Origin: a virus
Taxonomy: Duplodnaviria > Heunggongvirae > Uroviricota > Caudoviricetes
Direction: 5' to 3' (one strand)
DNA: 29,844 bases
IMG/VR virus record: IMGVR_UViG_2541047968_000011
In this document: positions 1-28,442 of the stretch, one piece after another
How positions within the stretch are numbered: the first letter of the stretch is position 1
Layout of the letters: each line of letters starts with the position of its first letter
Notes under the pieces: model-generated
The model's input: the letters and a program-made list of their open reading frames with translations, nothing else
Database searches by the model: none
What the model was told of the DNA's origin: nothing
Made by a program: the position numbers and the translations under genes

Positions 1-210
1 GTGAATGCAGCGGTGGAGCATCTTCGCGCACTGGAGAAAAAAGGTGTCATCACGATAAAGCGTGGCGTGGCCCGGGGTATCACTCTTCATACCGCGGTGA
101 AGGACGACGACAGCGAGGCGGTCGGGATTATCCGCGCCCTGCTTGCCGGTGAGGCAAACGCCAGGCTGCGTGCAGCCCACTGGTTACATGAGAGGGGCCT
201 GAAAGTATGA
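1..210 (+). CDS. Hypothetical phage protein, 5'-truncated by the window edge (C-terminal 69 aa only)
   Basis: Open frame runs from the window start and ends overlapping the rusA start. No family recognised with confidence. Confidence 0.3.
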   Translation: MNAAVEHLRALEKKGVITIKRGVARGITLHTAVKDDDSEAVGIIRALLAGEANARLRAAHWLHERGLKV

Positions 211-602
211 AGCTAATACTGCCTTTTCCGCCCAGCGTGAACACGTACTGGCGACACCCCAATAAAGGGGCGTTTGCTGGTAAGAGCCTGATAAGCGCGG
301 CGGGGCGAAAATTCCAGAGCGCGGCGTGTGCAGCAATAGTTGAGCAGTTACGTCGTCTGCCGAAACCAACGTCGGCACCTGCTTCAGTGGAGATCGTGTT
401 GTTTCCTCCGGATAACCGGATCCGCGATCTGGACAACTATAACAAGGCGCTGTTTGACGCCCTGACCCACGCGGGTGTGTGGGAAGACGACAGCCAGGTG
501 AAAAGAATGCTGGTGGAGTGGGGACCGGTTATCCCGGAAGGGAAGGTCGAGATCACTATCAGTAAGTACGAAAAAGCGAGTTGCAAATTAGCAACTCGGT
601 AA
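207..602 (+). CDS. rusA: Crossover junction endodeoxyribonuclease RusA (Holliday junction resolvase)
   Basis: 131-aa translation has the RusA-like pattern (N-terminal ...PPSVNTYWRH..., central ...RIRDLDNYNKALFDALTHAGVWEDDSQV...) and typical length. Position in the lambdoid nin region upstream of Q fits. Confidence 0.88.
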   Translation: MKLILPFPPSVNTYWRHPNKGAFAGKSLISAAGRKFQSAACAAIVEQLRRLPKPTSAPASVEIVLFPPDNRIRDLDNYNKALFDALTHAGVWEDDSQVKRMLVEWGPVIPEGKVEITISKYEKASCKLATR

Positions 603-647: not shown

Positions 648-667
648 TACTGTATTTATGAACAGTG
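648..667. promoter_or_regulatory. Candidate LexA (SOS) box, TACTGTATTTATGAACAGTG
   Basis: CTGT-N8-ACAG with an AT-rich spacer; 16 of 20 positions match the consensus TACTGTATATATATACAGTA as recalled. It lies about 100 bp upstream of the KilA-N gene start in the rusA/KilA-N intergenic region. Confidence 0.5.
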
Positions 668-764
668 TATCCTTGATAACTATTAAAAATCGCAGTAAGT
701 TCATCCTGCATCAACGAAAAGGGAGTGCAGTCCCGCTCGTGGATAAAAATTTGTGGAGAAACCA

Positions 765-1580
765 ATGAATCAGTTGCTTGTAATTGATGGCGTTTCTGTG
801 CGCCAGTACTTCGAATCTAACTACTGTCTTAACGACCTTCAGAAAGCTGCTCTTCTTGCCGCTGGTGAGAATCGCTCCTCCCGTTCGCTGGAAGTTCACG
901 AGTTTATGCGTCGTCCTGAAACGAAGGCTCTTGTGGAATTATTGGAAGAAGAAACTACGGGAGATTCCCGTAGTATTCCTGTCATCACCATTCAGGGGCG
1001 CAATGGTGGGACGTATGTCTGTAAAGAGCTGGTCTATGCATATGCAATGTGGATCAGCCCGGCATTCAGCTTAAAAGTGATACGTACTTTTGATGCGCTT
1101 CATAATTCATCACCAGAAGAAACCACATCCGACAAAATTAAATCCGGGGTCATTCTGCTTGAATCAGCAGCAAAGACTCTAAATCTGTCAAACTCCTCGA
1201 AACTTGGTGCATACCAGAAATTATCAAAGGTAGCTGGTCTTCCTGAACTTATGCCGATCTATGCCATTGATGCACCTGCTGATGCGCCAGATGGTTCAAG
1301 CCGCCCTACGCTGTCGCTGAGTGCACTGCTGAAGCAGTATGGTATCCGCCTGACGGCTAATCAGGCATATCACCAGATGGCGAAGCTGGGGATCGTTGAA
1401 CAACGCGAACGATACAGCCGTACCGCGATTAACAACATCAAAAAATTCTGGTCGCTGACAGCGAAAGGCTGCATGTTCGGCAAGAACATCACCAGTCCTG
1501 CAAATCCGCGCGAGACGCAGCCGCATTTCTTCGAATCCCGATTCCCTGAGCTGTTAAAGCTGCTCGATACCGTTCATTGA
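765..1580 (+). CDS. KilA-N domain protein (Roi/antirepressor-like)
   Basis: N-terminal region (...IQGRNGGTYVCKELVYAYAMWISPAFSLKV...) resembles the KilA-N/Bro-N fold signature. ATG at 765 is preferred over the track start at 753 because GGAG sits 6 nt upstream. Confidence 0.7.
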   Translation: MNQLLVIDGVSVRQYFESNYCLNDLQKAALLAAGENRSSRSLEVHEFMRRPETKALVELLEEETTGDSRSIPVITIQGRNGGTYVCKELVYAYAMWISPAFSLKVIRTFDALHNSSPEETTSDKIKSGVILLESAAKTLNLSNSSKLGAYQKLSKVAGLPELMPIYAIDAPADAPDGSSRPTLSLSALLKQYGIRLTANQAYHQMAKLGIVEQRERYSRTAINNIKKFWSLTAKGCMFGKNITSPANPRETQPHFFESRFPELLKLLDTVH

Positions 1581-1581
1581 G

Positions 1582-2577
1582 GTGACCGTGAGAGCACTAC
1601 TGACCCCTGAAATCGCCCCGCGTATGGGGATCGTATTGTTCAGGCCAGGTTCAGAGCTGATGCCCCTGTTTATGCAGGGGCGTGTCCTGCTGGAGCCTGA
1701 GCCGGAACGTTATTCATCTTTTGCCAGTGGTGCCGTTCCGGCGGCATCACAACCGCTGGCGGATGATCCTGCCGTTCGGGCCGTGTTCCGCAATGAGGCA
1801 GTGATCCGTCGTGCTGGTGGAGTGGAATGTCTTGAAAGCTGGTTACTTCGTGAAAAAGGCTGCCAATGGCCTCATTCCGACTGGCACAGCGAGAATATGA
1901 CCACAATGCGACACGCGCCGGGCGCAATCCGTCTGTGCTGGCACTGCGATAACCAGCTGCGCGATCAGTTCACGGAACGGCTGGAATCAATGGCAACGGA
2001 TAACTGTGCCCGCTGGGTGTTATCTGTTGTGCGCCGTGATCTCGGTTTTGATGATAGTCACGTTGTAACAATGCCGGAACTGTGCTGGTGGCTGGTTCGT
2101 AATGACCTGGCTGATGCCTTACCGGAAAGTGCAGCCCGTAAGGCACTGAGATTACCTAAGCCTGTTGTGCCGTCTGTCACCCGGGAGAGTGACCTTGTTC
2201 CTTCGGTTCCTGCCACCAGCATTATCCAGGATAAAGCGAAAAAGGTGCTGGCGCTGAAAGTGGATCCAGAGTCGCCGGAGTCTTTTATGTTACGCCCAAA
2301 ATGTCGCCGCTGGGTTAATGAAAAGTACACGCGCTGGGTTAAGACACAGCCGTGTGCATGTTGTGGAAAGCCTGCTGATGATCCCCACCACCTGATAGGC
2401 CACGGTCAGGGTGGAATGGGTACAAAAGCGCATGACCTCTTTGTGTTGCCTTTGTGCAGAAAGCATCACGACGAGCTGCATGCGGATACCGTGGCATTTG
2501 AAGAGAAGTATGGCTCCCAGCTGGAGCTGATATTTCGTTTTATCGATCGTGCGCTGGCAATAGGCGTACTGGCGTAA
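1582..2577 (+). CDS. DUF968-like lambdoid prophage protein with a C-terminal Cys/His (HNH-like) motif
   Basis: 331-aa ORF starting at GTG and overlapping the preceding stop. C-terminus has ...CACCGKPADDPHHLIGHGQGG...CRKHHDELH..., typical of proteins found between rusA/roi and Q in lambdoid prophages. Confidence 0.55.
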   Translation: MTVRALLTPEIAPRMGIVLFRPGSELMPLFMQGRVLLEPEPERYSSFASGAVPAASQPLADDPAVRAVFRNEAVIRRAGGVECLESWLLREKGCQWPHSDWHSENMTTMRHAPGAIRLCWHCDNQLRDQFTERLESMATDNCARWVLSVVRRDLGFDDSHVVTMPELCWWLVRNDLADALPESAARKALRLPKPVVPSVTRESDLVPSVPATSIIQDKAKKVLALKVDPESPESFMLRPKCRRWVNEKYTRWVKTQPCACCGKPADDPHHLIGHGQGGMGTKAHDLFVLPLCRKHHDELHADTVAFEEKYGSQLELIFRFIDRALAIGVLA

Positions 2578-2590
2578 GTGGAGAACGAGC

Positions 2591-3343
2591 ATGAACCTTG
2601 AAGCTTTACCAAAATATTACTCCCCAAAATCTCCAAAATTGAGCGATGACGCACCGGCGACAGGCTTGGGTGGTTTAACAATTACAGATGTGATGGCTGC
2701 GCAGGGGATGGTGCAGTCGAAAGCACCGCTTGGGTTTGCCTTATTCCTGGCAAAAGTTGGTGTTCAGGATCCTCAGTTTGCGATTGAAGGTCTGCTCAAT
2801 TACGCGATGGCACTGGATAACCCGACATTGAACAAATTGAGTGAAGAAACCCGGCTACAGATCATTCCTTACCTTGTGAATTTTGCCTTTGCTGATTATT
2901 CCAGGTCTGCGGCAAGTAAGGCTCGCTGTGAGCGTTGTGCTGGTACTGGATTTCATAATGTATTGCGCGAAGTGGTGAAACACTCCAGAAGCGGGGAGTC
3001 TGTTATCAAGGAAGAGTGGGTGAAGGAACTATGTCAGCATTGTCATGGTAAGGGAGAAGTCAGCACAGCGTGCAGAGGGTGTAAGGGTAAAGGTATTGTC
3101 CTGGATGAAAAAAGAACCCGGCTTCATGGTACGCCTGTTTATAAGATTTGTGGGCGTTGCAATGGAAAACGGTTTAGTCGTTTACCAACCACACTGGCGC
3201 GGCATCATGTCCAGAAACTGGTACCAGACCTGACGGATTATCAGTGGTACAAAGGATATGCAGATGTCATTGATAAACTGGTTACAAAGTGCTGGCAGGA
3301 GGAATCTTACGCTGAAGCACAATTGAGAAAGGTGACAAGATAA
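2591..3343 (+). CDS. Q: Late-gene antitermination protein Q (phage 21/82-type, zinc-finger class)
   Basis: 250 aa with paired Cys clusters (CERCAGTG...CQHCHGKG...CRGCKGKG...CGRCNGK). Sits immediately upstream of the lysis region with GGAG 6 nt before the ATG. Confidence 0.8.
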   Translation: MNLEALPKYYSPKSPKLSDDAPATGLGGLTITDVMAAQGMVQSKAPLGFALFLAKVGVQDPQFAIEGLLNYAMALDNPTLNKLSEETRLQIIPYLVNFAFADYSRSAASKARCERCAGTGFHNVLREVVKHSRSGESVIKEEWVKELCQHCHGKGEVSTACRGCKGKGIVLDEKRTRLHGTPVYKICGRCNGKRFSRLPTTLARHHVQKLVPDLTDYQWYKGYADVIDKLVTKCWQEESYAEAQLRKVTR

Positions 3344-3374
3344 GTGATCTTCGCCGAAAATGGTGACATGATGC

Positions 3375-3403
3375 TTGCAATTTTCAAAAAACATGGATAA
3401 GAT
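3375..3403 (+). promoter_or_regulatory. Putative late promoter (pR'-equivalent): TTGCAA - 17 bp - TAAGAT
   Basis: Sigma70-like hexamers with a 17-bp spacer about 30 bp downstream of the Q stop, where lambdoid phages carry pR'/qut. Not verifiable without tools. Confidence 0.3.
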
Positions 3404-3451
3404 TTTCTCAACGATGGGCTTTATGTATCTGCCGTTGATAACCTTCAAGAA

Positions 3452-3473
3452 CTCGCCATTGAGCGGGTTTTTT
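3452..3473 (+). terminator. Weak intrinsic-terminator-like hairpin plus T6 (tR'-like candidate)
   Basis: A 5-bp stem (ctcgc/gcggg, one G-U pair) with a 6-nt loop followed by TTTTTT, downstream of the putative late promoter. Confidence 0.25.
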
Positions 3474-27542: not shown

Positions 27543-28442
27543 CTAATCATTATGGAGTATTTGATCGCCGTATGGCCAGCCATTTTCCCCAGGAAGGGTC
27601 ATACCTAACATTGGCATAATACTAAGTTGTCCAATGGTAAATCCTAGAGCACTTGTATTACTGATTCCGGCATAGGTCATATCAAGGGGGTTAGACTCTG
27701 AGCTGGACATAAAAAGATTTCTTGTGCCAATTCTATTCGCCATTGAGAACTGAATATGCCCACCAATTGTATTTACGGTGTCCTGAGATATCCAGTTGTT
27801 TAACGCGATAAATGGCGCCCGCCACCAGTTAAGCGTGCCATTCTCAAAACGCCCCCTCGTCATCTCAATATCTTCCCGAAACTGCTGCTTTCTGTCTCCC
27901 AAGACTACCGGGGTACCTGTTGTCAGGTCAAGGCAGTCCTCAATTACAAGATTAGTGGGGTTTGATGGGGTGTTGTAGATCTTAATGATTTTATGTACCT
28001 GTGTTCTGAAACAGAATCCGTAAATAATCATCTCCGTTGCTACAGAACGGGGAAAAAACTGGCCAATATCCAGTATAAATTTTTCCGCGATTCCCTTTGT
28101 TAAAACTGCAATTTCATAAAGACTCGGGTAACTATCATAAGTCAACTCCGGCTGCTGAACATCATAATAATTAACTTCATGTAATGAAGATAATGATACG
28201 GCAAGTAACTCCTTCACATTTATACCGATCATTGTTCCTCCTGCAAAGCCGAAACCAAACTCCATAATTTTTTCCGGAGATAGACGGTATATGTCATTGG
28301 AGCGAATAACTGATACCGGAATCGAGAATAGTTTAGGACAGTGATTTGTCATTACACTTTCATGCTGGGTGATTCTTGAGTCGCTTACGGCCCAGATACT
28401 TTCCCCTTCTTCCCTGTTTAGCCAGCAGGCTATTGCTGTCAT
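27543..28442 (-). CDS. Hypothetical cargo protein (299 aa from the RBS-supported ATG; the frame is open to 28580), no recognised family
   Basis: Long minus-strand ORF in AT-rich DNA. A strong SD (AAGGGGG) sits 7 nt upstream of the ATG at 28442. It lies immediately downstream of pin. Confidence 0.6.
   Translation of the reverse strand: MTAIACWLNREEGESIWAVSDSRITQHESVMTNHCPKLFSIPVSVIRSNDIYRLSPEKIMEFGFGFAGGTMIGINVKELLAVSLSSLHEVNYYDVQQPELTYDSYPSLYEIAVLTKGIAEKFILDIGQFFPRSVATEMIIYGFCFRTQVHKIIKIYNTPSNPTNLVIEDCLDLTTGTPVVLGDRKQQFREDIEMTRGRFENGTLNWWRAPFIALNNWISQDTVNTIGGHIQFSMANRIGTRNLFMSSSESNPLDMTYAGISNTSALGFTIGQLSIMPMLGMTLPGENGWPYGDQILHND

Follow-up and report, generated by a model that had tools for sequence, protein, structure and literature searches.

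We analysed a stretch of 29,844 nucleotides (nt) of viral DNA (IMG/VR record IMGVR_UViG_2541047968_000011, Caudoviricetes), here called the window, which comprises the right arm of an SfV/SfIV-like, myovirus-tailed lambdoid prophage of Escherichia coli or Shigella, along with its structural genes. Our subject is a LexA (SOS) box in the spacer between two of its genes, rusA and kilA-N, and the transcription that this box may control. The window is a mosaic that no E. coli genome or phage record matches over its full length, and sibling prophages were used for comparison. The following genes and signals lie around the box (position 1 is the first letter of the window).

1-210, plus strand: 3' part of a phage gene for a LexA-like protein (Pfam LexA_DNA_bind; no S24 cleavage/dimerisation domain)
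207-602, plus strand: rusA, Holliday-junction resolvase (Pfam RusA, E 6.4e-15)
648-667, no strand assigned: LexA box TACTGTATTTATGAACAGTG, recognised by pattern and matrix score
673-701, plus strand: predicted sigma-70 promoter P(kilA-N), with -35 TTGATA at 673-678, a 17-nt spacer, -10 TAAGTT at 696-701 and a predicted start at about 708
765-1580, plus strand: kilA-N (PHROG 129), 271 amino acids (aa), with an N-terminal KilA-N/APSES-type domain and a C-terminal domain
1582-2577, plus strand: DUF968/HNH-like gene, beginning 1 nt past the kilA-N stop
2591-3343, plus strand: late-gene antiterminator Q (Pfam Antiterm, E 1e-53), 13 nt past the DUF968 gene

The LexA box and the predicted promoters beside it

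The box TACTGTATTTATGAACAGTG is an exact CTGT-N8-ACAG palindrome. It shares 16 of its 20 positions with TACTGTATATATATACAGTA, the E. coli LexA consensus, and its end lies 97 nt 5' of the kilA-N start codon at 765. A preliminary description of the window had reported such a 16/20 match about 100 base pairs (bp) upstream of a KilA-N gene in the nin region, and both statements agree with our measurements. It had also proposed that the site be scored with a position weight matrix. On an approximate symmetrised matrix of 26 E. coli LexA sites, the box reaches 21.7 bits. This puts it level with proven operators, as the training sites themselves have a median of 19.8 bits and range from 13.0 to 26.7 bits. 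The runner-up among the 20-mers on both strands of the 29.8-kilobase (kb) window scores 9.9 bits. A heterology-type index based on the same sites is 4.8-6.4 for the box; proven sites lie between 1.1 and 9.2 on this matrix. Both the palindrome and the score are those of E. coli-type LexA operators. Without regard to the other positions, CTGT-N8-ACAG is found two times in the window, where 0.43 occurrences are expected. The other copy, CTGTGTTCTGAAACAG at 27999-28014, reaches 6.2 bits and is probably fortuitous.

The spacer that holds the box is 162 nt long (603-764) and also contains P(kilA-N). A simple consensus promoter scan found nothing between 400 and 1000, the -10 TAAGTT matching at only three of six positions (T1, A2 and T6), and for this reason we used a weighted sigma-70 matrix. 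With this matrix, which like the LexA matrix is approximate, TTGATA-17-TAAGTT is among the top 4 of the 59,636 positions scored on the two strands of the window. The gap between the end of the box and the -35 is 5 nt, and given a start at about 708 the box is centred at about -50. A GGAG (755-758) precedes the kilA-N ATG.

Downstream of the promoter, kilA-N, DUF968 and Q are spaced only 1-13 nt apart. We found no convincing terminator between P(kilA-N) and Q; the first strong one (3447-3472) lies 3' of Q. Because no terminator intervenes, read-through from P(kilA-N) into Q is probable. Between Q and this terminator there are two promoter-like sites, one at 3332-3361 and the other, TTGCAA-17-TAAGAT, from 3375. 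The elements at 3332-3472 are the late promoter and terminator expected for Q action.

The spacer can also be read leftwards, from two further features.

714-686, minus strand: candidate promoter, with TTGATG at 714-709, a 17-nt spacer, GATTTT at 691-686 and a start at about 679
577-598, minus strand: 8-bp perfect palindrome CGAGTTGC-N6-GCAACTCG, overlapping the end of rusA and followed by a T-run on the minus strand only

The leftward promoter is the weaker of the two, both of which are predictions. An RNA that starts from it would cross the box at +12 to +31 and end at the minus-strand terminator at 598-577, where the sequence 598-570 forms an intrinsic-terminator-like hairpin with a U-run. 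Neither for this RNA nor for the leader hairpin described below did Rfam hold a family, when searched with the spacer at E up to 10 and with the whole window at gathering thresholds. In Shiga toxin (Stx) phages the prophage Pas small RNAs are located close to rusA.

The kilA-N upstream region in related phages

Eighty loci that encode relatives of the KilA-N protein were drawn from species-representative genomes and 80 from IMG/VR, with 8 loci added for alleles of intermediate identity (L numbers are our handles for loci). In the commonest alleles, which share about 70% protein identity and are found in vB_EcoM-689R6, SfV, SfII, mEp460 and Stx2 phages, kilA-N begins 20 nt past rusA, as against the 162-nt spacer of the box allele, and has neither a promoter of its own nor a box. 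It follows that the family as a whole is not characterised by LexA control.

Three other lineages, from Raoultella (L006), from an IMG/VR record (L125) and from Kluyvera (L170), can be aligned gaplessly with the window, from the box through the leader hairpin, over a region that is about 60% identical. All three keep the TG of the -35, the 17-nt spacer, a TAAnnT -10, the 5-nt gap between box and promoter, and the right half-site (C/T)CAGTG. Gapless conservation across four lineages supports P(kilA-N) as a real promoter. The left half-site varies, from CTGT in the window to CTGG in L006, GTGG in L125 and GTGT in L170, and the scores of the site range from 21.7 down to 7.7 bits. The Raoultella locus has the geometry of the window with CTGG...TCAG, at 14.6 bits. 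In L125 and L170 the bases homologous to the box encode the final rusA codons and the stop (aTGAac).

LexA-like sites occur upstream of kilA-N in other genera too. In Erwinia (L026) a 16.6-bit site lies over the -10 of a rightward TTGCCA-17-TATATT, and in Serratia (L011) a 15.2-bit site lies over the -10 of a rightward TTGCAC-17-TACGTT; neither promoter architecture is homologous to that of the window. At the Edwardsiella locus (L023) the site lies at -83 and scores 19.1 bits. In sister lineages the sites are decayed (8.3 bits in L029, 9.9 in L003 and -0.8 in L126). Sites of at least 12 bits were found in 8 of 32 non-redundant kilA-N upstream regions, where dinucleotide shuffles lead us to expect 0.12 (maximum 2 in 300 shuffles). 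For sites of at least 14 bits the count is 5 of 32 against 0.07 expected, and for at least 16 bits it is 3 of 32 against 0.03. Because LexA-like sites recur across these regions and have decayed in sister lineages, LexA control at kilA-N promoters would appear to have arisen, or to have been retained, repeatedly, yet to be evolutionarily labile.

The same rusA/kilA-N junction, box included, is present in 186 of 5426 complete E. coli genomes (about 3%), as well as in the phages SfIV and PhiR49_1 and in the prophage of the O104:H4 strain C227-11. A search with the 147-nt spacer returned only SfIV, PhiR49_1 and their copies, and no other context. Among 100 IMG/VR contigs with the same flanks, the box is identical in 97; two have the change G20A, which is toward the consensus and is shared with SfIV, and in one ACAG has become AGAG. 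On our reading, LexA control is an addition peculiar to this allele, which is that of SfIV, of the O104:H4 prophage and of about 3% of E. coli genomes, and is no general property of the gene.

The upstream region has a second conserved element.

714-740, plus strand: leader hairpin, with core GGGA (721-724), loop GUGCAG (725-730) and UCCC (731-734)

The hairpin lies 20-50 nt 5' of the kilA-N start, has the loop consensus N-U-R-C-R-G and is built from at least 10 different compensating stems. We see the same element upstream of kilA-N in loci L002-L039 and L125-L170, and even at promoterless loci, where it overlaps the rusA stop. An unbiased count finds it in 19 of 29 non-redundant orthologue leaders as against 4% of control windows, and in none of 33 distant KilA-N genes. 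Hairpin cells are paired in 85% of cases versus 54% in shuffles, and the covariation score is 0.85 versus 0.28 (none of 500 shuffles reaches it; slid controls give 0.05-0.21), for hairpins that were chosen by a complementarity search. This suggests a site for protein binding or processing at the level of the RNA.

Related prophages carry strong LexA boxes at other genes as well. A box of 22-24 bits lies over codons 3-9 of a gene for a 349-aa non-specific adenine methyltransferase of the M.EcoGI/GII type, 3' of Q. It is found at 20479-20498 of L001 (the O104:H4 C227-11 prophage), at 6156 of L004, at 5951 of L012 and at 5460 of L031. Besides the O104:H4 prophage, three other genera thus have the methyltransferase box, and CTGT-N8-ACAG stays constant in them with changes in the amino acids that it encodes. 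The M.EcoGII gene is silent in the lysogen, according to a paper that mentions neither LexA nor SOS (PMC5778455). The box may explain this silence in the O104:H4 lysogen. Another box, TACTGTTTTTACATACAGTA, scores 24.9 bits and lies inside cI of the same prophage (L001 10870-10889), in the linker between the helix-turn-helix (HTH) and S24 domains, at the codons for NTVCKNS. The 'LexA boxes' of an endolysin from extraintestinal pathogenic E. coli (ExPEC) were considered too and proved to be unrelated weak sites.

What the box may control

The KilA-N protein of the window has a match to Pfam PF04383, and its model superposes on the APSES domain of Mbp1, which makes it a member of the KilA-N family. 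For its C-terminal half neither Pfam nor NCBIfam gave a match, even with the threshold relaxed to E 10. The C-terminal domain (residues about 180-270) is found also fused to the N-terminal domains of Rha and Bro-N proteins. Identity with P1 KilA is only 37% (residues 4-109), and residues 5-121 are matched by an 'ant' gene from Emek, a P22-like phage. Before Q, kilA-N and DUF968 form an invariant, tight pair in Escherichia, Pantoea, Serratia, Erwinia, Rahnella and Kluyvera. The KilA-N protein appears to be a DNA-binding regulator that acts together with DUF968. The preliminary description had called the gene Roi-like. HK022 Roi (L164 4656-5381) does lie at the same place on the map, with the recombination/nin genes on one side and Q on the other, but it is a Rha-type protein, unlike the protein of the window. 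A tblastn search of the window protein against the right arm of HK022 gave no match on the roi open reading frame (ORF), and the label does not hold.

The other gene of interest encodes the LexA-like protein. Its full-length copy (L001 15325-15651) specifies 108 aa, with LexA_DNA_bind (E 2.9e-19) as the sole domain and a 40-aa tail. The protein is colinear with residues 2-70 of E. coli LexA (PDB 1LEA/3JSO), and its recognition helix reads NAAVEHL where that of LexA reads NAAEEHL. Like gp6 of the phage GIL01, it is a LexA DNA-binding domain without S24. Our literature search found no characterisation of this 108-aa protein, and the sole precedent found was GIL01 gp6. Some phages with the gene have the box and others do not, and boxes also occur without the gene.

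We put the probability at roughly 55% that the 20-mer is a working host LexA operator, which makes transcription of kilA-N-DUF968 SOS-inducible and independent of CI. As long as a lysogen is undamaged, LexA occupying about -41 to -60 would repress P(kilA-N) through a clash with sigma region 4 and with the alpha C-terminal domain. DNA damage would then bring about RecA-stimulated cleavage of LexA, and P(kilA-N) would open. The genes kilA-N and DUF968 would be transcribed independently of CI and of read-through from pR, and transcription would probably run on into Q. The further strong LexA boxes of related prophages speak for this reading, as they indicate that LexA control is in use in this phage group.

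Several observations weigh on the other side. The weakest link is the geometry of the box, together with two lineages that keep the promoter and lack a good box. The box is placed 5' of the -35 and not on the core promoter, which is an unusual site for LexA repression. L170 (7.7 bits) and L125 (13.0 bits) retain the promoter and the right half-site and have GTG in place of the left CTG; hence, the promoter is tolerated without a good LexA box. Most kilA-N orthologues have no box at all. The copies of the box allele are nearly clonal and thus carry no signal of selection within the allele. The box of the window lies in what seems to be a decayed 3' end of rusA, and the palindrome may partly reflect that descent. 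Moreover, the promoter matrix and the LexA matrix alike are approximate. Finally, a search of the literature found no report of this LexA site, of its geometry or of a characterisation of this KilA-N family, and no transcript, binding or expression data.

One could argue from some of these points that the palindrome is a relic, a decayed rusA end that happens to resemble a LexA box and has no regulatory role, in which case read-through from the early promoter would be the sole source of kilA-N expression. The homologous sequence of L170 and L125 still encodes the last rusA codons and the stop, the copy in the window reads as a remnant of these (...LKILYL*), the left half-site is not kept among the lineages, and the box allele is almost clonal. 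However, a score of 21.7 bits is far beyond anything else in the window or in shuffled upstream regions, the site stands at a fixed distance from a conserved strong promoter, and independent LexA-like sites have been found at non-homologous kilA-N promoters of other genera. We therefore regard a mere relic as unlikely. The box could instead control the leftward transcript, making it a small RNA of about 110 nt that is induced by SOS. For such an RNA the box is just 3' of the start, a classical position for repression, and the score of the minus-strand promoter is in the top 30 of 59,636 positions. The T-run beside the 577-598 palindrome also fits this direction. The minus strand of 680-568 folds into three clean stem-loops (-34.6 kcal/mol, z-score -5.1; -28.1 kcal/mol and -3.1 for the plus strand), and the middle stem has three G-U pairs, which on the plus strand would turn into A-C mismatches. 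Set against this are the weak -10 (GATTTT), the lack of conservation of promoter elements and terminator in related lineages that retain the position of the box, and the lack of an Rfam match. In addition, the fold is in part the LexA palindrome itself, the terminator stem has two single natural variants which pull in opposite directions, and the element is known in a single context only. A small RNA as the target of the box seems to us improbable.

A different ligand has to be considered as well, since the box might mainly or additionally be the operator of the uncleavable 108-aa LexA-domain protein of the phage, whose gene lies two genes 5' of kilA-N. Once made from the early operon, this protein would re-close or activate the promoter and possibly host SOS promoters. 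S39, N41, A42, E45 and the wing RG of LexA, whose importance is said to have emerged from the 3JSO work, are all retained in this protein. Its gene is part of a module, Dam-LexA_DNA_bind-RusA-KilA-N-DUF968-Q, that is conserved across Escherichia, Citrobacter and Kluyvera. A box centred at about -50, 5' of the -35, fits an activator at least as well as a repressor, and GIL01 gp6, which binds near a -35 and activates late genes, provides a precedent (PMC6182141). However, the near-identical genes of 689R6 (L083) and of L009, L005 and L007 occur without a box at kilA-N, and these phages have no site of at least 12 bits anywhere (38 kb in 689R6). Conversely, good boxes occur in L011 and L026, where the nearest 3 kb contain no LexA-like gene. 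The homologues differ freely from one another at helix positions 44/45 (VE, TG, AD, AT, AE, ED, TA), which makes a shared box specificity doubtful, and we saw no co-variation between recognition helix and box sequence among them. The protein also has no LexA dimerisation domain. Such a role is, to our minds, a long shot. Slighter still is the chance that the KilA-N protein serves as an antirepressor under LexA control and inactivates the repressor of the prophage, induction then proceeding via LexA and not via self-cleavage of the repressor. A LexA box at the promoter of a nin-region gene, outside the immunity region, is indeed what the Gifsy phages have (PMC3121763). KilA-N, Bro-N and Rha N-terminal domains on common C-terminal domains, such as the one found here, are often annotated as antirepressors, and the match to Emek 'ant' is of this kind. 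Known antirepressors of this sort are small, with 60-90 aa in the Gifsy phages. The protein of the window has 271 aa, Pfam finds KilA-N and no DinI/Tum-type or ANT domain (a search by domain and not by direct comparison with the Tum or Gfo sequences), the gene always comes with DUF968, and in most phages it has no promoter or box of its own. Our literature search gave no link of this KilA-N family to antirepression.

The repressors themselves also argue against such a scheme. The evidence comes from sibling prophages, as the immunity region of the window's own prophage lies outside the window. Both SfIV gp37 and the CI of the O104:H4 C227-11 prophage, which belong to boxed phages, have a Peptidase_S24 domain with Ala-Gly, the GDSM serine and the lysine, and the same is true of the repressor of 689R6, which has a different kilA-N allele. 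IMG/VR has 42 contigs in which the exact box context is preceded by 6.5 kb of sequence or more. Of these, 40 contain a leftward ORF of 208-253 aa with the Ala-Gly and GDSM motifs of an S24-type CI, and these 40 ORFs span at least five immunity types. To judge from these motifs, CI cleavage remains the primary switch of induction, and for the KilA-N protein an accessory or cross-acting antirepressor role is possible. The preliminary description had proposed SOS control of an antirepressor that acts in place of RecA-dependent repressor cleavage. SOS control gains support from a site of operator strength, a strong and conserved adjoining promoter and recurrence in several genera, all at the level of sequence. 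The antirepressor identity does not, as kilA-N is an ordinary nin-region gene paired with DUF968 and has none of the domains in question. Nor does the replacement of repressor cleavage, and where that description had suggested looking for a repressor without a cleavage site, the CIs of the siblings turn out to carry Ala-Gly.

LexA control of kilA-N-DUF968 could also be one part of a larger arrangement, in which the whole spacer serves as an SOS relay. The LexA-shut promoter would feed kilA-N-DUF968 into Q and act as a second, CI-independent lock on lysis. The LexA-domain protein of the phage, made from the early operon, would later re-occupy the operator, and possibly host SOS boxes, and so time or shut off both the burst and the host SOS response. 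The 113 nt of 568-680 may in addition encode the LexA-gated leftward small RNA. We offer this combination as speculation that would have to be lucky to be right.

Significance and comparison with known systems

Should the box be functional, LexA would directly gate a promoter just 5' of Q in a prophage that about 3% of sequenced E. coli genomes contain. The carriers include the O104:H4 outbreak lineage and SfIV, a serotype-converting phage of Shigella. Late and lysis functions would then be open to DNA-damaging antibiotics by a route that bypasses CI and early antitermination, and the timing of lysis, the release of vesicles or toxin, and cross-talk between prophages could all be affected. If the box is non-functional, it is one more fortuitous palindrome of little consequence. 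The locus also brings together three uncharacterised neighbours, namely the KilA-N/DUF968 pair, the phage copy of the LexA DNA-binding domain and the conserved leader hairpin. A link to Q and to the neighbouring LexA-domain gene, if shown, would raise the interest of the box further.

Control of prophage genes by LexA boxes that lie beyond the immunity region is well established, with examples in the Gifsy phages, 186 (tum), N15 (antC), CTX-phi and GIL01. There is a close likeness to the dinI-antirepressor operons of the Salmonella phages Gifsy-1, -2 and -3 (gfoA, gftA and gfhA), which have a consensus LexA box and a promoter of their own in the region equivalent to nin (Lemire et al. 2011, PMC3121763). 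As in the window, these operons lie 3' of the replication genes with a palindrome ahead of them, and they put a LexA handle on a prophage gene outside the immunity region. The upstream palindrome of the window has no T-run on the coding strand, unlike that of Gifsy. The genes differ too. In Gifsy, dinI and a small antirepressor are controlled, and the LexA-controlled antirepressors are paired with repressors of about 150 aa that are incapable of self-cleavage (PMC3121763). In the window, the box precedes a 271-aa KilA-N protein, DUF968 and probably Q, and the siblings have S24 CIs.

In coliphage 186 (Tum) and in N15 (AntC), LexA represses a phage promoter and the SOS response switches on a phage regulator, much as we propose for the window. 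Part of Tum is DinI-like, and its target is a CI that cannot be cleaved. In the protein of the window, Pfam finds KilA-N only. This protein is more readily compared with P1 KilA and the KilA-N/APSES family of DNA-binding domains, which was reportedly described by Iyer, Koonin and Aravind in 2002. With these it shares a KilA-N N-terminal domain and the modular fusion to a shuffled C-terminal domain, although its own C-terminal domain is not the KilA-C/ANT domain.

In GIL01, a tectivirus of Gram-positive hosts, the late promoter P3 is controlled by gp6, gp7 and LexA; its gp6 palindrome is of a different sequence and is centred at -43.5, and the activator role of gp6 is proven (Fornelos et al. 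2018, PMC6182141). In the phages studied here binding of the LexA-like protein to the box is only possible, and gene and box do not co-vary in presence. Nevertheless, GIL01 and the phage group of the window have the same two components in common, a homologue of the LexA N-terminal domain only and host LexA boxes, which gate late functions in GIL01 and would do so here.

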